DNA of 64,000 nucleotides from Candidatus Omnitrophota bacterium (GCA_029571225.1 JAKPTF010000097.1:417-64416); one strand, 5' to 3'; positions 3,393 to 13,624 are shown, counted from the first letter of the stretch. Numbers and translations: made by a program. Notes: generated by a model from the letters alone, not told the origin.

Positions 3393-4697
3393 ATGATTTC
3401 CAGAAGGGTTTCCGAAGGCCTGCCTGCGGGGTTCCAGCTTTCTCTGGAGTTTGCCCGAGCGTTCGATCTGATGGAAAATACTGATCAGTGCATCCTTGTT
3501 ACTGGCAAGGCGGGCACAGGCAAATCCACGCTGCTGCAGTTCTTTTTAGAGAACACCGCGAAGCAATGCGTTGTCCTTGCTCCAACCGGCGTTGCAGCCG
3601 TCAACGTGAACGGCCAGACCATTCATTCTTTCTTCGGTTTCCCTCCCAGGTTCATCCATGAAGACTCGATTCGACGCAGGCGAAACCGCAAGATGATCAA
3701 ACGCATCGATACGGTCATCATAGACGAGGTATCCATGGTTAGGGCGGATCTGATGGATGGTATAGATCAGGCCCTTCGCATTAACCGCGACCGGCCGGAC
3801 GAGCCTTTCGGCGGCGCGCAGGTGTTGCTGTTCGGAGACCTTTTCCAGCTGGCGCCGATCGTGGGGCAGGATTTGTCCGGCCTCTATCAGGAACATTACG
3901 CGACGCCTTATTTTTTCAGCGCACACGTTTTCAAGGAAGCCGCTTTTTTGCGGATAGAGCTCACCAGGATCTTCAGGCAGTCAGACGACAGCTTCATCGG
4001 CCTGTTGAACAGGATACGGAACAATCAATGCGACGACGGCGACTTCAGCCTCCTGAACAGCAGGGTCGATAGGTCCATCGGCGACGGCCCGGACCAGTGC
4101 GTCACGCTGACGGCGACCAATTACGACGCGAGGTCTTTGAACCAGAGGCGCCTTGCGAGATTGCCCGGCCGGCTGGTCGAGTATGAGGCGGATATCGCTG
4201 AAGACTTCGACGAGCCGTCATATCCGACCGACCGCATGTTGAGGCTTAAAGCAGGCGCCCAGGTGATGATGCTCAAGAACGACCCGCAGAAACGGTGGGT
4301 AAACGGTTCTATCGGCGTTATCCGGGCGCTTGTCGGCAGCGTTATAAGCGTCGATATCGACGGCAGGATCCGTGAGGTTGAGCCAGTTGAATGGCAGAAG
4401 ATCGTTTATGAATACAATAAAGCGGAGGACCGGATCGAAGAAAAGGTCATCGGGACGTTCACGCAGTATCCGCTCAAGCTCGCCTGGGCGGTTACGATAC
4501 ATAAGAGCCAGGGCCAGACTTTCGATAATGTCGTGATAGACCTGGGCAGGGGAGCGTTTGCCCACGGCCAGGTGTACGTGGCGCTTTCCAGGTGCACGAG
4601 CCTGCAGGGCATAACGCTCAAAAGGCCGGTCACCCCGCGTGATATTGTATTTGATGCCCGTATCCATGAATGCGCCGGCATGATGCCGGCGGGATGA
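3393..4697 (+). CDS. Pif1/RecD-family ATP-dependent DNA helicase
   Basis: Walker A GKAGTGKST, IIDEVSM (Walker B) and the C-terminal AVTIHKSQGQTFD...YVALSRC motif are typical of Pif1/RecD/TraA-like SF1B helicases. An alternative GTG start at 3381 overlaps the upstream gene. Confidence 0.85.
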   Translation: MISRRVSEGLPAGFQLSLEFARAFDLMENTDQCILVTGKAGTGKSTLLQFFLENTAKQCVVLAPTGVAAVNVNGQTIHSFFGFPPRFIHEDSIRRRRNRKMIKRIDTVIIDEVSMVRADLMDGIDQALRINRDRPDEPFGGAQVLLFGDLFQLAPIVGQDLSGLYQEHYATPYFFSAHVFKEAAFLRIELTRIFRQSDDSFIGLLNRIRNNQCDDGDFSLLNSRVDRSIGDGPDQCVTLTATNYDARSLNQRRLARLPGRLVEYEADIAEDFDEPSYPTDRMLRLKAGAQVMMLKNDPQKRWVNGSIGVIRALVGSVISVDIDGRIREVEPVEWQKIVYEYNKAEDRIEEKVIGTFTQYPLKLAWAVTIHKSQGQTFDNVVIDLGRGAFAHGQVYVALSRCTSLQGITLKRPVTPRDIVFDARIHECAGMMPAG

Positions 4698-4732
4698 TGG
4701 GCGGTTTTTTAGACAACGAAGGGAGGATAAGG

Positions 4733-5533
4733 ATGTTAAGGAGTCCTGTGATAGCTCTGATTACGGTGTTGTGCGCAGCTGTCCTGGCGCATGCGTCGGA
4801 CGCGATCGTAGAATTCGAGGGCCGGTATTGGATGCCGGATTTGACAGCAAAGGCGCGCGTGACCGAATCGAACATAATCGGCAGCGATATAAATTTCAAG
4901 TCAGAACTTGGCATCAAGGACGAGGATTTTCCCGAAGGCAGGTTCACCTGGCACGTCAGCCCGAACAGTAAAATCCGCGCGTTCTATACGCAGGCGGAGT
5001 TCAAAGGAGATCAGGTTGTGTCCAGGACGATTACCTTTGACGGAAAGACGTATACCGCAGGTGCGCAGGTCAAGACGGATCTGGATCTGCAGTATTTCGG
5101 CCTCGGATGGGTATGGGAATTCATTGATGTCCTGAACGGCAGGCTCAAGGCAGGCACGATCCTTGAGGCAAAGGGGGTTGCTGGCAAGGCTACACTGGAT
5201 GCGCCCGGGCTCGGGATAAAGGAATCGGCGGATTTTATAGGCGGGTTGCCTACCGTAGGTCTTACACTTGCGATAAACCCGTTCAAAAACAACGCCCCGT
5301 ACGTTTCAAATACCGTCATATCGGACTTAAGCCTGTATGCGGAAGCTGCCGGAATGTCCGCAGGGGAATACGGGTATTTTATCGACGCGGAAGCAGGGAT
5401 TCGCTGGATGCCGGTTAAATATGTCTGCGTCTCAGGAGGTTACCGGGCTGTTTCTTTGAAAGCAGAGGACGACCCTGATTACGCCCGTTTCGAGCTAAAG
5501 GGCCCGTTTGCCGCAGTTGCGATAAGGTTCTAA
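4733..5533 (+). CDS. Outer-membrane beta-barrel protein
   Basis: Signal peptide MLRSPVIALITVLCAAVLAHA, alternating amphipathic strands, and a C-terminal ...AAVAIRF ending in Phe as in OM barrels. The track ORF starts at 4670. Confidence 0.55.
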   Translation: MLRSPVIALITVLCAAVLAHASDAIVEFEGRYWMPDLTAKARVTESNIIGSDINFKSELGIKDEDFPEGRFTWHVSPNSKIRAFYTQAEFKGDQVVSRTITFDGKTYTAGAQVKTDLDLQYFGLGWVWEFIDVLNGRLKAGTILEAKGVAGKATLDAPGLGIKESADFIGGLPTVGLTLAINPFKNNAPYVSNTVISDLSLYAEAAGMSAGEYGYFIDAEAGIRWMPVKYVCVSGGYRAVSLKAEDDPDYARFELKGPFAAVAIRF

Positions 5534-6457: not shown

Positions 6458-6658
6458 ATGGTTAAGGGAAAAGTAAAGTGGTTCTCGAACGAAAAAGGCT
6501 ACGGTTTTATTACTCCTGAAAACGGTAATGATGTCTTCGTGCATCATAGCGTGATTCAGGGTGAGGGATATAAGACGCTTGCCGAAGGACAGGAAGTTGA
6601 ACTGGAAATAGTTCAGGGTCCGAAGGGCGAACAGGCCTCGAAAGTCGTAAAGCTCTAA
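6458..6658 (+). CDS. cspA: Cold-shock protein (CspA family)
   Basis: 66 aa. RNP1 KGYGFI and RNP2 VFVHHS motifs with a full CSD layout. Confidence 0.95.
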
Positions 6659-6676: not shown

Positions 6677-6709
6677 GGCCCGGCATAGTAATATGCCGGG
6701 CCTTTTTTT
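6677..6709 (+). terminator. Intrinsic terminator of csp
   Basis: Perfect 11-bp stem ggcccggcata/tatgccgggcc, loop gtaa, then T7. Confidence 0.9.
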
Positions 6710-6720
6710 ATGTTTACGGT

Positions 6721-6749
6721 TGATAAAACGAGTGGATAGGTGTAAAATA
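6721..6749 (+). promoter_or_regulatory. Putative promoter of the ktrB operon
   Basis: TTGATA (6721-6726), 17-nt spacer, TAAAAT (6744-6749). Confidence 0.5.
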
Positions 6750-6788
6750 ATAAAAATTATGTCAATACGGGAAAGGTGTTCGTGCTGA

Positions 6789-8483
6789 ATGCTTAATTTT
6801 ATAAAGCGTAAATACGATTATTTCATAGGGTTTACCGCGCTTGTGGCGTTTGCGCTTCTGCTCATCGAGAATTCGGCGTATGTCAGGCCGTACGCGTTCC
6901 TGATAGGAGAGATCAACCTTACGGTAACCCTTATTTTCGTCAGCGACATCCTTCTTCGTTTCTTCGCCGCCCGCGATAAGAAAACGCACCTTTCCCGCAA
7001 CTGGTTGGATCTGATTGTTTTTATTCCGTTCATCCAGCTCATCAGGGGTCTGGAGAATACCGCCGCATTTGTCATCATACGCCAGATTGTCATCATCTTG
7101 ATTCTTTTGTCCCGGATACGCAAATCTACCAGGCTGCTCAATCTGCTCAGCCTCAAACCGGCGCAGATGATGATTGCGACTTTCGCTTTCGCCATCGGCG
7201 TAGGCGCCGTGCTTTTGATGCTGCCTGTCGCTACGAGGACGGGCGTCAGGACATCGTTGACCGACGCGCTGTTCACCGCGACTTCGGCCACGTGCGTCAC
7301 CGGTTTGACCGTTAAGGATACTGCCGTGCATTTCAGCCTGTTCGGCCAGATCGTGATACTTGCACTCATACAGGTCGGGGGTCTGGGTATTATGACGTTT
7401 TCGGTATCCATGGCCCTGATCATGGGCAAGAACATGGACATGAAGCAGCAGGTGGTTATGTCGGATATCCTCGATGAAAGCTCGCTTGCCCGGGTCAAGC
7501 ACATGGTGACGTATATCCTGAAAATGACGCTTTTTTGCGAGGCAGCCGGAGCAGCGTTATTGTTCGCATCGTGGATCGGCAGGACCGGAGGAGTGGTGAA
7601 GACGGCGTATTATTCCGTGTTTCACGCGGTATCAGCATTCTGCAACGCCGGGTTCTCAACTTTCAGCAACAATCTGGTCAGGTTTCATGACGATGTATCC
7701 ACGAATCTTGTCATTTGCGCGCTTATCGTCGTAGGCGGGCTCGGTTTCACGGTTATAAAGGATCTCCACGATAATCTGAATATACGGTTCGATTTTTCGA
7801 TAAGGCGCAAGGTCAAGCTGAAAATGCATACGAAGGTGGCCGTTTTGATGTCCGCAGCTCTCATTATTCTGGGCGCGGCCGCATTCTATCTCCTCGAAAA
7901 GGACGCGCTTTTCGCCGGATACGATCTCAAAGGCCGCGTGTTGTCGTCCCTGTTCCAGTCGGTAACCGCCAGGACAGCGGGGTTCAATACGTGCAGTATA
8001 GCCGGTCTCTCCGGCACATCCTTGCTTGTTATGATGATACTGATGTTTATCGGCGGCTCTCCCGGTTCAACCGCAGGCGGCGTCAAGACGACGACGGTGT
8101 CCGTGCTGTTATCCACGATCATCAGCGAATTTCAGGGTAAGGATAATACCGAGATATTCAGGCGGACGATCTCTCCTGCCCTCATAAAAAAAGCGATGAT
8201 TATCTTTTCGGTGTCCAGCATCCTCGTCGTGGCGTTTGCCGCTGGTTTACTCATGGTGGAGCACAAACAATTCCTGCCTGTTGTTTTTGAATCGGTGAGC
8301 GCCTTCGGCACGGTCGGCCTGTCCGCTGACCTGACCCAGGCGTTGAGCGGCAGAGGCAAGCTTTTGATCACAGTGCTCATGTTCATCGGCAGGCTGGGCC
8401 CGTTGACCGTCGGTTACGCGTTCCTGCGGCGCCACCGCCAGCCGCGGTACGAATACGCCCGGGAGAACCTTGCCATCGGATAA
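6789..8483 (+). CDS. ktrB: KtrB/TrkH-family K+ transporter with an N-terminal ~115-aa four-helix voltage-sensor-like extension
   Basis: The core carries the TrkH/KtrB signature (LFTATSATCVTGL, AFCNAGFS, TARTAGFN, SAFGTVGLS selectivity-filter-like repeats). The N-terminus resembles S1-S4 of the ion_trans family (IFVSDILLRFFAARDKK, NWLDLIVFIPF, IIRQIVIILILLSRIRKSTRLL). Confidence 0.85.
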   Translation: MLNFIKRKYDYFIGFTALVAFALLLIENSAYVRPYAFLIGEINLTVTLIFVSDILLRFFAARDKKTHLSRNWLDLIVFIPFIQLIRGLENTAAFVIIRQIVIILILLSRIRKSTRLLNLLSLKPAQMMIATFAFAIGVGAVLLMLPVATRTGVRTSLTDALFTATSATCVTGLTVKDTAVHFSLFGQIVILALIQVGGLGIMTFSVSMALIMGKNMDMKQQVVMSDILDESSLARVKHMVTYILKMTLFCEAAGAALLFASWIGRTGGVVKTAYYSVFHAVSAFCNAGFSTFSNNLVRFHDDVSTNLVICALIVVGGLGFTVIKDLHDNLNIRFDFSIRRKVKLKMHTKVAVLMSAALIILGAAAFYLLEKDALFAGYDLKGRVLSSLFQSVTARTAGFNTCSIAGLSGTSLLVMMILMFIGGSPGSTAGGVKTTTVSVLLSTIISEFQGKDNTEIFRRTISPALIKKAMIIFSVSSILVVAFAAGLLMVEHKQFLPVVFESVSAFGTVGLSADLTQALSGRGKLLITVLMFIGRLGPLTVGYAFLRRHRQPRYEYARENLAIG

Positions 8484-8504
8484 ACATTTTAACCAGGAGA
8501 AGCC

Positions 8505-9194
8505 ATGCGTCAAGTAGCGGTTATCGGTCTGGGGAAGTTCGGCAGTACCGTCGCGAAGGAGCTGACGGAACGCGGCGCGCATGTGATCGCGGTGGATGAA
8601 AATGCCCAGCGTGTGGAAGAGGTTAAGGAATCCGTGACGTACGCGGTTACGGTGAATTCCGTTGACGAGAACGCCCTGCGGGCAGTCGGCATCCAGAACG
8701 TGGATATTGCTGTGGTTTGCATCGGGGAGGACGTGGAGGCGAATCTGCTGACCACGCTCCTCTTGAAAAAAATAGGCGTCAAGAAGATATGGGCGCGCGC
8801 GATAAGCCCGCTGCAGCAGGAGATCCTCAAGACGATCAAGGTCGATAACATCATCAATCTTGAGGAAGAGATGGGGGATCTGGTCGCCAATAGCCTGATC
8901 TCGCGAAGCATTTCGAAATGCATACCGCTAACGCCGGGCCACAGCATCGCCGAGGTGCCGGTTCCCCGGGCGCTTGTGGGCAGGAACATCAGGTCATTGA
9001 GGCTTCGGGAAAGTTACCGAATCAATGTGGTTGCGGTCAAAAAGAAGAAGCCCAGGATCAATGAGCATGGGGAGCGTATTTTCGAGGAATACATGGAGCA
9101 TGTACCTGAGCCCGGAGCTCCGCTAGAGGAAACAGACGTGTTGATGATAATAGGAAGCGACGCGGATATCGAACGGTTCTCGAACATCTCGTGA
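8505..9194 (+). CDS. ktrA: KtrA/TrkA K+ uptake regulatory subunit (RCK: TrkA-N + TrkA-C)
   Basis: VAVIGLGKFGSTVAKEL Rossmann GxGxxG motif and a C-terminal TrkA-C-like region. It lies directly after ktrB (21-nt gap). Confidence 0.85.
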   Translation: MRQVAVIGLGKFGSTVAKELTERGAHVIAVDENAQRVEEVKESVTYAVTVNSVDENALRAVGIQNVDIAVVCIGEDVEANLLTTLLLKKIGVKKIWARAISPLQQEILKTIKVDNIINLEEEMGDLVANSLISRSISKCIPLTPGHSIAEVPVPRALVGRNIRSLRLRESYRINVVAVKKKKPRINEHGERIFEEYMEHVPEPGAPLEETDVLMIIGSDADIERFSNIS

Positions 9195-9206
9195 AGGAGA
9201 AATAAG

Positions 9207-9902
9207 ATGACCAGGCATACGATAAAGCTCTTATGGCTCTTTGCCGTGCTGTCGTGCGTTGCCGGATATCAGGCGGCGCTGGCCAGGGTCCCCATGCCGG
9301 GCGCCGTTGCTTATCTTTACGGCGTTTTCTTCGCGGCGGGCCTGCTGGCATGGCTGCATTTGACCCTGCGCATATTCACGTTCGGCAGGGACCTGGCGCG
9401 GTTCGCGCGGCGCGTGATCTCCAACGAATACGAAACCGGCGTCAAGGTATCACGGTTGTTTGACGATGAGGTTTCCGTCTTATCACGGCGTATCAACAAA
9501 ATGGCTGAGCAACTGGCTGCGTATGACGGACTGCAACGGGAACGGATATCGGTGGTATCCCGCGCGCTGGACGTCGTATGCCATTCGGTCAAGGATAATA
9601 TCATCATATTCGATATCAAACAGAACGAATTCCGGTTCAATCCCCCTGCCCAGGAGGCATTTGCGGTAGAACAGGAGTCATTCGGGTATAATGCCGTTGC
9701 GATGCGGGCAAACAATGCAGAATTCATCGGGCTTCTGCGGGCTGCGGTCGAAAAGGGCTCTTTCGCCACGAATGCGAGCGTGGACCTGGAGCTTCCCGTC
9801 AGGCAGACCCGCCGCAAGCTTGTTGTGAATATTACGCCGGTCAAAGATAAACATGAGACAGTGGAGTTGTGCCTGATCTTTTTCAAGAGCGCCGGCGCAT
9901 GA
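9207..9902 (+). CDS. Membrane protein with 2 TM helices, a HAMP-like linker and a PAS-like C-terminal domain; no output domain
   Basis: Two hydrophobic helices, then DLARFARRVISNEYETGVKV...DEVSVLSRRINKMAEQL (HAMP pattern), then ~110 aa with a PAS-like pattern (NIIIFD...FRFNPPAQEAF). 12-nt gap after ktrA. Confidence 0.55.
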   Translation: MTRHTIKLLWLFAVLSCVAGYQAALARVPMPGAVAYLYGVFFAAGLLAWLHLTLRIFTFGRDLARFARRVISNEYETGVKVSRLFDDEVSVLSRRINKMAEQLAAYDGLQRERISVVSRALDVVCHSVKDNIIIFDIKQNEFRFNPPAQEAFAVEQESFGYNAVAMRANNAEFIGLLRAAVEKGSFATNASVDLELPVRQTRRKLVVNITPVKDKHETVELCLIFFKSAGA

Positions 9903-10549
9903 GACAAGCTATTTTCGCCGCGTTTTTCTGTCTGGCAATGCCCGCGGCTGCGTGTTGTCATCAGCCGCGTATCTCGTTCGGGCAGAGGCATCCGTTCCTT
10001 CGCCCGGTGGTTATCCGCCAGCCGGAGGTCTCCAGGGCGTATTACGGTATCCTTGAGGGCGAGCCCGATTATTACAGGATAGACAGCGGTTCACCTTACC
10101 AGCTGTACCTGAATATACTTGTTCCTGACCGCAAAGACTCTGTCCTTGACGTTAAAGTAGACGTCGTGACCGGGAATCTGACGCTTCTTTCGCTCAAAGG
10201 CGCTGGGTTCGGGTGGACGCGTTTTTTCGAGCCCTTTGCCCGTGACCGTTATCTCAAAGGCCCTGAGCTTGACTGGCGGCTCAGGCAGGGGACATATTTT
10301 ATCAAAGTTTCCAACAGGGGGAACAGGGGAAGGTACGTGCTGGCTGTCGGCCGCAGAGAGTCGTTCCCCGTCCATGAGGTCGCCAGAATGGCATGGACAT
10401 TGCCGGTTATTAAAAAGCACTTCTTCGGCAAACCAGGGTATTGCGCGTTTTTTTCGCCTGCGGGCTTGATCGTCCTGGGGTATATGACAGTCATCTGTGG
10501 GATTGTGTGGGGCGCTGTCATTGTGATCCGGAGGTATGCATCCAAATGA
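9899..10549 (+). CDS. Exported protein with a C-terminal membrane anchor, function unknown
   Basis: ATGA overlap with the upstream gene. Signal-like N-terminus MRQAIFAAFFCLAMPAAA and a C-terminal TM helix (GLIVLGYMTVICGIVWGAVIVI). No family recognised. Confidence 0.5.
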   Translation: MRQAIFAAFFCLAMPAAACCHQPRISFGQRHPFLRPVVIRQPEVSRAYYGILEGEPDYYRIDSGSPYQLYLNILVPDRKDSVLDVKVDVVTGNLTLLSLKGAGFGWTRFFEPFARDRYLKGPELDWRLRQGTYFIKVSNRGNRGRYVLAVGRRESFPVHEVARMAWTLPVIKKHFFGKPGYCAFFSPAGLIVLGYMTVICGIVWGAVIVIRRYASK

Positions 10550-11769
10550 AACATTCGTTTCTTGCAATACTGATGTGCATGATGAGCGCATGCTGTTTGG
10601 CCGAGGAAACCCGGTCGCAGCCGAAATACGTTATTCTGGCCTGGAGCGGTTCAGGCATGCATTTTTACTCCGAAGATTTCCAGGATGCGGCGATCCTGCC
10701 CCCGAATAATACGCTTATGTGCCAGGTGATCAAAGTCGGGGAGCCTCCGCAAATCGTGAAAAGCGGCGTCATTGTGGAATACCGCTTCAGGGACAATACT
10801 TTTTCTGCGGGCAAGGACAGCAAGCGCGATAAGACCAATTTCTGGAAGTTCGCGCGGAAATTATTCGGCGTAGATGCTGAGGTGAATAAAGGGCTGACCG
10901 GCAAAGGCCTTTCAGGCCTTATGGACGCGGCCGGGGATTATTTTATTGCCCAGGGCATACCTATTACCGAATACCGTGACGGCTCGGTTGCAGATATAGA
11001 CCGGGGCCTATGGGAACGTTATCCGTTTCAGCTGGCTGCCATCGTGGTTAAGGATGAAAAGACCGGCGTTGAACTGGCCCGAACCAGCGTCGTGGCGCCC
11101 GTATCGAGCGAGGTCAATTGCATGCAATGCCACGGGGATGCTGGGGCTGCGACGAAGAAACACGGCATAAAACCGACAGGAAAATATCAGACGAATATCC
11201 TTTCGCTGCACGATAAGCTGAACCCTGATAAGTATCCGGCGCCTTTGATGCACAGCAGGCCGGTATTATGCGCATCCTGCCATGCATCGAACGCGCTCGG
11301 CGCCATGGGCCGCCAGGGCATACCCAGCCTGTCGAACGCCATACACAGAAGGCATCAGGACCTGCCGGAGATGACCCCCGACACAAACGGCTGTTACAAC
11401 TGCCATCCTGGCCCGCGGACGCAATTCCTGCGGGATACGATGTCGGTGAATTATAAACTCAATTGCACGACGTGCCATGGCACGATGTCAACGGTTGCAA
11501 GGAACCTGGAACCGTGGAAGGTGGAGCCGCGATGCGATAACGGCTCATGCCACGGCCAGGGATACGCCCTTGATAAGCCGTTATTCAACCAGTCAAAGTC
11601 TAAAACCGGGATATATTGCGCCGCCTGTCACGACAGCGCGCATGCGATCGCGCCCAGCAGGCAGGAAAGCGATCAAATCAAATTCAAGGACCTTCAGAGT
11701 AGCCCGGGCACTCTGCGCAGCTGCGCTGTCTGCCACGGCAGGGATGTGCAGAAACCCTTCAAACATTGA
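10546..11769 (+). CDS. Periplasmic multihaem c-type cytochrome
   Basis: ATGA overlap with the upstream gene. Signal peptide MKHSFLAILMCMMSACCLA. Six CxxCH motifs (CMQCH, CASCH, CYNCH, CTTCH, CAACH, CAVCH) plus one CDNGSCH lie between 11119 and 11736. The first ~190 aa carry no haem motif. Confidence 0.8.
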   Translation: MKHSFLAILMCMMSACCLAEETRSQPKYVILAWSGSGMHFYSEDFQDAAILPPNNTLMCQVIKVGEPPQIVKSGVIVEYRFRDNTFSAGKDSKRDKTNFWKFARKLFGVDAEVNKGLTGKGLSGLMDAAGDYFIAQGIPITEYRDGSVADIDRGLWERYPFQLAAIVVKDEKTGVELARTSVVAPVSSEVNCMQCHGDAGAATKKHGIKPTGKYQTNILSLHDKLNPDKYPAPLMHSRPVLCASCHASNALGAMGRQGIPSLSNAIHRRHQDLPEMTPDTNGCYNCHPGPRTQFLRDTMSVNYKLNCTTCHGTMSTVARNLEPWKVEPRCDNGSCHGQGYALDKPLFNQSKSKTGIYCAACHDSAHAIAPSRQESDQIKFKDLQSSPGTLRSCAVCHGRDVQKPFKH

Positions 11770-11785
11770 TAAACACGAATACATG

Positions 11786-11813
11786 TTGACAAAACAGGTA
11801 TCGGTGCTATACT
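11786..11813 (+). promoter_or_regulatory. Sigma70-type promoter of the DEAD-box helicase gene
   Basis: TTGACA (11786-11791), 16-nt spacer, TGC-TATACT extended -10 (11805-11813). Nearly the same core as the csp promoter. Confidence 0.7.
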
Positions 11814-11832: not shown

Positions 11833-11890
11833 AAGATTAGTAATCGTAAAACCGTAAAGGTTAGATAACTAACTTTTACGGTTTTTGTTT
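11833..11890 (+). promoter_or_regulatory. Helicase 5' leader element: AAGATTAG box plus terminator-like hairpin
   Basis: AAGATTAG at 11833-11840. Hairpin aaaccgtaaagg/cttttacggttt (11849-11884, one G.U, 12-nt loop) running into TTTTTGTTTTTT. The RBS AAGGAG follows at 11904-11909. Confidence 0.55.
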
Positions 11891-13347: not shown

Positions 13348-13375
13348 AATTATATAAATTGTATATTTCATGTCA
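13320..13375. promoter_or_regulatory. 10-bp perfect inverted repeat bracketing the promoter core (candidate operator)
   Basis: tgacatgaaa (13320-13329) and tttcatgtca (13366-13375), 36 nt apart. The left arm overlaps the -35 and the right arm abuts the RBS GGGAGG. Confidence 0.45.
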
Positions 13376-13387
13376 GGGAGGTTATTT

Positions 13388-13624
13388 ATGGAGAAAACAT
13401 CGCCTTTACTCAAAGTTTACGGAACCGTGACCGTAGGGGAACGCGGGCAGGTGGTGGTGCCGGCAAAAATACGCAAGATGTACGGTTTGAGCCCAGGGGA
13501 TAAATTGATTGTGCTTGCCAGAGAAGGCGCGCCGATCGGGTTTGTGCCTGTTTCCGCATTCAATGCGTTCATAGAACAGCATGAGCAGTTTATAACTCAG
13601 ATGAAAAAGAATACCGGAGCCTGA
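13388..13624 (+). CDS. AbrB/MazE/SpoVT-family DNA-binding protein
   Basis: VTVGERGQVVVPAKIRKMYGLSPGDKLIV is the swapped-hairpin SpoVT-AbrB motif. ATG at 13388 follows GGGAGG. Confidence 0.75.
   Translation: MEKTSPLLKVYGTVTVGERGQVVVPAKIRKMYGLSPGDKLIVLAREGAPIGFVPVSAFNAFIEQHEQFITQMKKNTGA

Follow-up and report, generated by a model that had tools for sequence, protein, structure and literature searches.

A stretch of 64,000 nucleotides (nt) from Candidatus Omnitrophota bacterium (GCA_029571225.1, JAKPTF010000097.1:417-64416; hereafter, the window) contains, between a csp gene and the gene of a DEAD-box helicase, a cluster of five genes: ktrB and ktrA, the gene of a small transmembrane (TM) protein with HAMP and PAS domains, and the genes of an exported, C-terminally anchored protein (ANCH) and of an exported multihaem c-type cytochrome (CYT). 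We interpret this cluster, with a probability of about 0.6 for the interpretation as a whole, as a composite operon of two separable modules that share one promoter, namely a ktrB-ktrA-HAMP/PAS trio and an ANCH-CYT pair, in which the HAMP-PAS protein serves as a dedicated regulatory subunit of the Ktr system. The composite nature of the operon is the firmer part and appears highly probable, and the assignment of the HAMP-PAS protein as a dedicated subunit of this Ktr variant, which is suggested by gene linkage, is slightly favored.

Gene order in the window and in related genomes

The trio was found in all nine of the loci examined, which were picked by KtrB similarity (KtrB identity of 54-92%) and represent at least five neighborhoods, and the HAMP-PAS gene always follows ktrA directly. 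All five genes are present at the csp-DEAD locus in L002 (91-96% identity), L003 (57% identity of the HAMP-PAS protein), and the fragment L160 (54% identity of the HAMP-PAS protein). L003 represents the same csp-DEAD locus, since the start of the DEAD-box helicase gene was found downstream by tblastn, and it contains one extra response-regulator gene. An Omnitrophica metagenome-assembled genome (MAG; L168) has the order csp-ktrB-ktrA-HAMP/PAS-CYT-DEAD, in which ANCH is missing, with a 16-nt gap. Three further relatives, L088 and contigs of P0016 and P0012, have the order csp-ANCH-CYT-DEAD and contain neither ktr nor HAMP-PAS genes at this position; the contigs of P0016 and P0012 have upstream PIF1-helicase genes in common with L002, and P0016 also shares the downstream MazE and OEP genes.

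In four other neighborhoods the trio is located elsewhere, namely after hipBA (L172/173), after OEP-MFP-MacB genes and before a Macro-domain gene (L170/171), after an MscS-type channel gene in an Elusimicrobiota MAG (L174), and after a nitroreductase gene together with OEP-MFP-MacB genes (L175/176). Identity to the window in these neighborhoods is 71, 63, 55, and 54% for KtrB and 47, 41, 34, and 38% for the HAMP-PAS protein. Their third genes encode proteins of 227-243 amino acids (aa) with no Pfam match and either start at most 9 nt past ktrA or overlap it; homology was established by tblastn and a hidden Markov model (HMM), the HAMP-PAS HMM scoring the L174 and L175 proteins at 214-222 bits. 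Neither an ANCH homologue nor an open reading frame (ORF) with two or more CxxCH motifs was found within 5-7 kb on each side of L170, L172, L174, and L175. The adjacency of all five genes is thus not a feature of multiple genomic contexts: the five occur together only at the csp-DEAD locus, and two-gene, four-gene, and trio-only variants exist.

The spacing between ktrA and the HAMP-PAS gene is short across the loci (12, 12, 13, 13, 9, 7, and 3 nt, and one overlap of 26 nt). Identity to the window decreases through 91, 74, 72, 71, 63, 55, and 54% for KtrB and takes the corresponding values of 93, 69, 57, 47, 41, 34, and 38% for the HAMP-PAS protein; the trio proteins seem to diverge in step, which is consistent with co-inheritance.

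At the csp-DEAD locus itself, the terminator of csp is conserved in L002, L168, and L088. The -35 and -10 boxes of the following promoter-like site can be aligned among the window, L002, and L168, in which ktrB comes next, and L088, in which ANCH comes next; beyond the -10 box, the window and L088 stay alike for only a few bases. Since a homologous terminator and promoter precede ANCH in L088, the trio sits between a pre-existing promoter and ANCH. With respect to CYT, the five-gene locus L003 is nearer to the two-gene locus L088 (82% identity) than to the window (73%), and the ANCH tree agrees. Therefore, the presence of the trio at the csp-DEAD locus has changed at least twice and is not monophyletic. 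Base composition bears no trace of a recent transfer of the trio, its GC fraction being 0.538 vs. 0.547 in ANCH-CYT and 0.548 in the window.

These comparisons bear directly on the first-pass annotation of the region, which had proposed that K+ uptake is coupled to the periplasmic redox state. The synteny survey, which that annotation had itself named as the refuting test, speaks against the proposal: adjacency between the K+ uptake genes and the cytochrome gene is absent in relatives, ANCH-CYT occurring alone in three of them and the trio alone in four neighborhoods. Concerning the neighbors of ktrAB, the link to the HAMP-PAS gene holds more widely than had been claimed (9/9 loci), whereas the link to ANCH and the cytochrome does not hold. 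As judged from gene order, the adjacency of K+ uptake and cytochrome genes is an accident of that order.

Within the window, the four consecutive junctions of the cluster (ktrB/ktrA, ktrA/HAMP-PAS, HAMP-PAS/ANCH, and ANCH/CYT) measure 21, 12, -4, and -4 nt, and direct reading of the sequence confirmed an ATGA overlap at both of the latter two. An alternative GTG start of ANCH at 9869 would give an overlap of 34 nt. The ktrB leader is approximately 40 nt long and contains a GGAAAGG ribosome-binding site, and ktrA is preceded by the ribosome-binding site AGGAG. In L168 (6985-7003), the ATG codon of ktrB is located approximately 7 nt past the conserved -10 box, and the mRNA may be leaderless there.

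The csp terminator shields the cluster from upstream transcription. Between 8483 and 11769, the sole terminator-like match on the + strand is a weak hairpin inside CYT (10639-10656; z -1.5), which is equaled in 16 of 200 shuffles; two more weak matches lie in the interior of ktrB, and the total of 11 terminator-like matches vs. 8.3 ± 3.5 in shuffles is at chance level. No promoter-like site was found on the + strand from 7775 to 10090, which leaves ANCH without one ahead of it. Past CYT, a strong hairpin followed by a U-run first occurs at 11848-11885, downstream of the promoter-like site of the helicase gene. A scan of the whole window against Rfam gave zero RNA families at the gathering score, and no riboswitch, e.g., for c-di-AMP, was found before ktrB. 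By common strand, single promoter, tight or overlapping junctions, and lack of a convincing internal terminator, the five genes plausibly form one operon.

In these respects the first-pass annotation proved largely accurate. The gene order, coordinates, gaps, and ATGA overlaps that it gave agree with ORF calls and with direct reading of the junctions; its statements that no hairpin terminator lies between 8483 and 11769 and that the genes are apparently co-transcribed are borne out, the only hairpin being no better than shuffles and co-transcription being plausible on the grounds given above; and the identities that it assigned to the five products (KtrB, KtrA, a TM-HAMP-PAS protein without an output domain, an anchored exported protein, and a multihaem cytochrome) were upheld, the HAMP part of the third product as a putative one. 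The single promoter-like site that it reported was found again, one base away from the position that it gave (6721-6749; Table 1).

Table 1. Positions of the cluster genes and of neighboring elements, counted from the first letter of the window.
Feature	Position	Strand	Description
csp	6458-6658	+	
csp intrinsic terminator	6677-6702	+	11-bp stem, 8 GC pairs, U-run; -23.9 kcal/mol, z -5.9
Sigma-70-like promoter	6720-6748	+	TTGATA-17-TAAAAT; 10/12 consensus matches
ktrB	6789-8483	+	564 aa; voltage-sensor-like extension and TrkH core
KtrB S1-S4-like N-terminal domain	6813-7196	+	KtrB residues 9-136
ktrA	8505-9194	+	229 aa; RCK gating subunit, TrkA_N and TrkA_C
Gene of 2TM-HAMP-PAS protein without output domain	9207-9902	+	231 aa; third gene of the trio
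ANCH (exported, PPC-like beta-sandwich, C-terminal TM anchor)	9899-10549	+	216 aa; second module
CYT (exported multihaem c-type cytochrome)	10546-11769	+	407 aa; second module
Promoter-like site of DEAD-box helicase gene	11786-11813	+	TTGACA-16-TATACT with TG, 11/12; kept in L088
17-bp hairpin and U-run inside helicase leader	11848-11885	+	-20.6 kcal/mol, z -5.7; kept in L088

Several features of the flanks were observed in passing. The promoter-like site and hairpin of the helicase gene correspond to 2140-2236 in L088. The hairpin may have two effects, ending the operon that precedes it and attenuating transcription of the helicase gene itself; the csp gene on the other flank suggests cold-dependent read-through. 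A small MazE/AbrB-like gene (13370-13624) follows the helicase gene, and from 13630 on there is an efflux operon of the OEP-MFP-MacB type, for which L002 and L168 are also cited. An OEP-MFP-MacB efflux gene set also adjoins the ktr trio in L170 and L175, at different loci. In L174, the MscS-type mechanosensitive channel gene (4085-5020) extends 20 nt into the start of ktrB, which points to an osmotic-homeostasis context for the trio there.

The encoded proteins

KtrB matches the Pfam TrkH family (E = 1.6e-62) and TIGR00933 (336.9 bits, cut-off 331.15), and its translation contains the P-loop glycine motifs VTGL, NAGF, TAGF, and TVGL. KtrA contains TrkA_N (3.9e-27) and TrkA_C (2.2e-9) domains and the GxGxxG motif GLGKFG at residues 8-13. 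With a TrkH/KtrB-family protein and an adjacent RCK subunit, ktrB-ktrA can thus be predicted to encode a Ktr/Trk K+ uptake system.

The N-terminal extension of KtrB resembles the S1-S4 region of voltage-gated channels. Residues 9-136 align to positions 4-136 of the Pfam Ion_trans family (E = 2.6e-5), although the score of 24.0 bits is under the gathering score of 25, and a profile of 11 KtrB homologues falls on S1-S4 in NaChBac (E = 1.1e-5 and 2.3e-4), in the "Ion transport protein" 4dxw (1.4e-3), and in the 132-aa potassium-channel chain 1ors (3.5e-3). A precomputed PF00520 match is present in 3 of the best 120 KtrB homologues. Acidic positions are well conserved among the homologues, E27 in S1 being invariant, D53 in S2 nearly so, and position 74 in S3 mostly Asp. 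The gating-charge pattern of S4, a basic residue at every third position, was not found in KtrB: R98 is the sole conserved arginine of S4, and other basic residues gather at its cytoplasmic end (S108-R109-x-R-K/R). From its sequence, the N-terminal domain can be called voltage-sensor-like and is at most a putative voltage sensor. The long form (553-590 aa, query coverage 93-100%) accounts for practically all of the 120 top-scoring KtrB matches, the source names of which include Omnitrophota, Elusimicrobiota, Margulisbacteria, Planctomycetota, Kiritimatiellia, Lentisphaeria, and Verrucomicrobiota.

The 231-aa product of the third gene has no Pfam match above threshold, and sequence searches against Pfam and the PDB gave nothing usable; among the NCBIfam models, it aligns to the HAMP-PAS stretch of AtoS, NblS, PnpS, and WalK (E from 2e-6 to 3e-3). 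Two TM helices at its N-terminus are separated by a periplasmic loop of approximately seven residues, and the HAMP and PAS parts are predicted to be cytoplasmic. In the alignments with NblS and WalK, the HAMP part of the model falls on residues 61-105 of the protein; the Pfam HAMP family gives no match even at E ≤ 10. The putative HAMP AS2 signature of the protein is DEVSVLSRRINKMAEQL, and the invariant motif DE..(x7)..IN.M..QL presumably corresponds to the AS2 signature of HAMP domains. Across the nine HAMP-PAS proteins 28 columns are invariant, including the DE...IN motif of HAMP AS2. The Pfam PAS family matches two of the nine homologues, weakly (best E = 0.0021).

A structural model of this protein was built by AlphaFold2 (AF2) from a five-sequence alignment and was used for fold class only, its predicted local distance difference test score (pLDDT) being 53.8 overall and 55-76 in the PAS part. 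Residues 58-104 are modeled as helix, break, and helix at pLDDT below 50, and the predicted order of secondary structures in the PAS part is beta-beta-alpha...alpha-beta-beta-beta. A Foldseek search with the model gave 226 PDB matches at E ≤ 0.001, the WalK model being first; 47 of the best 50 matches are PAS/LOV domains, with template-modeling scores (TM-scores) of 0.6-0.7 on the target. By its fold, as modeled at low confidence, the C-terminal part is thus a probable PAS domain.

In all nine homologues (226-243 aa), the chain stops at most a few residues past the last strand of PAS, and no HisKA, DHp, or HATPase match was found in any of them. Because it ends directly past the PAS fold, the HAMP-PAS protein is not a kinase; because it contains no DHp/HisKA, HATPase, or MCP domain, it is neither a kinase nor a chemoreceptor. 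The first-pass annotation had cited HAMP-PAS modules as transducers of periplasmic or membrane signals. With cytoplasmic PAS and HAMP parts and a periplasmic loop of only about seven residues, this protein has no dedicated periplasmic sensor domain, and its design is not that of a reader of the periplasm.

ANCH is predicted by AF2 (pLDDT 89.4) to consist of a signal peptide, a beta-sandwich, and a C-terminal TM helix, and its model matches the collagen-binding domains of ColG in Foldseek (E = 1.2e-5, TM-score of approximately 0.7 on the target); Pfam and PDB sequence searches with ANCH and with the N-terminal half of CYT gave nothing usable. The family is represented by 201 matches in species-representative genomes and 465 in metagenome contigs, mostly in Patescibacteria and DPANN archaea. 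Neither a Ktr gene nor an ORF with three or more CxxCH motifs was found near ANCH in 158 of the loci fetched, and the gene usually stands alone. Most family members have a mature N-terminus of the form AHQPRI, and some possess an extra YgaP-like (PF11127) membrane domain at the C-terminus. The N-terminal histidine (AxA|HQPRI) was considered as a copper-binding "histidine brace" of the YcnI/CopC type and rejected, since it is replaced by Gln in P0024-P0026 and the fold is of the PPC/collagen-binding type, not a cupredoxin.

CYT contains six CxxCH motifs and one CxxxxCH motif, preceded by a non-haem N-terminal domain of approximately 180 aa, and starts with the hydrophobic N-terminus MKHSFLAILMCMMSACC. 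Its C-terminal 160 residues match the Pfam MtrC/MtrF II/IV family (48.5 bits, cut-off 30), and Cytochrome_C7 is also above its cut-off. With a signal peptide and several CxxCH motifs, CYT is predicted to be a multihaem c-type cytochrome. Full-length searches place CYT in a large family (1079 cluster representatives, E ≤ 1e-3), in which much longer proteins are frequent among the members listed. In the window, CYT is the only ORF of at least 80 aa with a CxxCH motif.

Two proposed modules on one putative transcript and the alternatives

Under the two-module reading, module A would be a Ktr-type K+ uptake system composed of a KtrB with an S1-S4-like domain, the RCK subunit KtrA, and the TM-hairpin/HAMP/PAS protein. 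Most likely, a cue from the cytoplasm or associated with the membrane would be detected by the PAS domain and relayed by HAMP and the TM hairpin, through direct contact, either to the KtrA ring or to KtrB, plausibly to the voltage-sensor-like part of the latter. This would add a gating input beyond the binding of nucleotides to KtrA. Module B (ANCH and CYT) would be the resident pair of the csp-DEAD locus with a periplasmic electron-transfer role of its own, placed on one transcript with the trio simply by the position of the latter between ANCH-CYT and their promoter. More tentatively, and with considerable doubt, the combination of S1-S4-like KtrB, KtrA, and a TM-HAMP-PAS protein could form an undescribed three-input gate of K+ uptake in more than one phylum, the trio being present in Omnitrophota and Elusimicrobiota; the three inputs would be the state of the membrane (S1-S4-like domain), nucleotides (RCK ring), and a cue, e.g., the redox or energy state, that is sensed by PAS.

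Several points weigh against the two-module reading and the role that it gives to the HAMP-PAS protein. The order of the five genes is kept in at least four diverged relatives (L002, L003, and L160 among them, down to 54% identity of the HAMP-PAS protein), and CYT still adjoins the trio in L168 after the loss of ANCH; some selective benefit of co-expressing the five genes is possible. The sample comprises nine trio loci, all chosen by KtrB similarity. The role of the HAMP-PAS protein as a regulatory subunit is a putative one suggested by gene linkage, its AF2 model is of low confidence (pLDDT 53.8), Pfam HAMP is unmatched, and Pfam PAS matches weakly in just two of nine members. Co-transcription and the lack of an internal promoter are likewise in silico predictions.

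Four other explanations were weighed against the same evidence. The conserved order at the csp-DEAD locus, the tight packing under one promoter, and the position of CYT beside the trio in L168 would also be expected if all five proteins formed one pathway, in which CYT and ANCH report periplasmic redox and the HAMP-PAS protein relays it to KtrAB, and the C-terminal TM helix of ANCH could in principle contact the TM hairpin of the HAMP-PAS protein. Such a pathway is nevertheless very unlikely, given that three relatives have ANCH-CYT alone at this locus, behind the same promoter, that four other neighborhoods have the trio but neither ANCH nor CYT, that L168 dispenses with ANCH, and that the protein supposed to relay the signal has a periplasmic loop of some seven residues and a cytoplasmic PAS domain. 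It is also quite unlikely that the five adjacent genes are divided between more than one transcript, ANCH-CYT having an internal promoter in the 3' end of the HAMP-PAS gene. The pair is autonomous in relatives, and weak sites (9/12) are present on the + strand at 10090-10119 and 10269-10298; both lie past the promoter-free interval that extends to 10090, with no site upstream of ANCH, while the ATGA overlap and the weak ribosome-binding site of ANCH suggest translational coupling, and the ancestral promoter of ANCH-CYT now sits upstream of ktrB.

The remaining two explanations concern the HAMP-PAS protein. By sequence it comes closest to the HAMP-PAS segments of the sensor kinases AtoS, NblS, PnpS, and WalK, and by fold to a WalK model; response-regulator genes are located a few genes downstream in L003, L170, and L172. 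This would suit a signaling adaptor that acts via a separate, unlinked kinase or partner and that, instead of gating the transporter itself, controls how ktr or other genes are expressed. We regard this as unlikely: all nine homologues lack kinase and DHp domains, the response-regulator neighbors are inconsistent among loci, and the only constant neighbors are ktrB and ktrA at very short gaps, a pattern typical of subunits produced in fixed proportion. That the gene is a decaying, functionless remnant of a truncated histidine kinase, as the missing output domain and the lack of a Pfam match above threshold might indicate, is scarcely credible, because a remnant would not persist across phyla, and the gene is intact in nine loci, encoding 226-243 aa with 28 invariant residues at identities down to 34%. 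The preferred reading remains that of two modules, with the HAMP-PAS protein as the putative Ktr subunit.

The rejection of K+/cytochrome coupling, which would have been new physiology, averts a misleading annotation. If the HAMP-PAS partner gates the transporter, it would represent a new regulatory input to a main bacterial K+ uptake system and a simple system for studying the kinase-free action of PAS/HAMP modules on a channel. The large set of KtrB proteins with a voltage-sensor-like domain spans several phyla, mostly of uncultured bacteria, and the HAMP-PAS partner is present in every locus sampled.

Comparison with known systems

Regulation of the classic KtrAB systems proceeds through KtrA and KtrB and involves NADH, ATP/ADP, c-di-AMP, divalent cations, and Na+ (PMC11078986). 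The system of the window resembles KtrAB of Bacillus subtilis and Vibrio alginolyticus in that a TrkH-family pore with four P-loop glycines and a KtrA of approximately 225 aa with TrkA_N and TrkA_C domains are encoded side by side. In contrast, its KtrB is approximately 110-120 aa longer and has an S1-S4-like domain, and a third, HAMP-PAS gene is present, whereas the classic two-gene systems have neither.

DgdA is a lipid-synthesis protein of the glycosyltransferase type. Under the name KtrE (PMC3916417), it is the third protein needed beside KtrA and KtrB in the KtrABE system of Synechocystis, as reported by Zulkifli et al. (2010; PMC2944510) according to the sources that cite it (PMC11078986; PMC3916417). 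Unlike the third protein described here, KtrE is not a TM-HAMP-PAS protein, and no homology between the two is implied. In a full-text literature search of incomplete coverage, KtrABE was the sole three-component Ktr system found, with no Ktr-HAMP/PAS partnership and no relevant paper on a fusion of a voltage sensor to KtrB/TrkH. A Ktr-HAMP/PAS trio with an S1-S4-like KtrB is, provisionally, new to the literature.

The third protein shares with the kinases WalK, NblS, AtoS, and PnpS and with receptors of the Aer type a TM hairpin or second TM helix followed by HAMP and a cytoplasmic PAS domain. It differs from them in that it stops past PAS, without a DHp/HisKA, HATPase, or MCP domain, and in being encoded within a transporter gene set.

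In the second module, CYT resembles the MtrC/OmcA cytochromes through its last 160 residues, which correspond to the MtrC/MtrF II/IV pentahaem unit. The likeness is partial: CYT has seven haem motifs and a different N-terminal domain, scores 25.5 bits against TIGR03507 vs. a cut-off of 209, and has no MtrA/MtrB partners near it.

A last comparison, by analogy only, is with the KCNH channels (EAG/hERG), which likewise combine a voltage-sensor-type domain, a K+ pore, a PAS domain, and a gating domain of the nucleotide-binding type. PAS domains of EAG are among the top fold matches of the HAMP-PAS protein, as would be expected for any PAS domain. The pores are unrelated (four-fold MPM in KtrB vs. 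a 6TM tetramer in KCNH), and in the window system PAS is located on a separate polypeptide together with HAMP; the likeness is one of parts, with no sign of common descent or of voltage gating in the window system. If the tentative three-input gate exists, it would be a bacterial counterpart, in logic, to the design of EAG/hERG, which is built from a voltage-sensor domain, PAS, and a nucleotide-binding domain.

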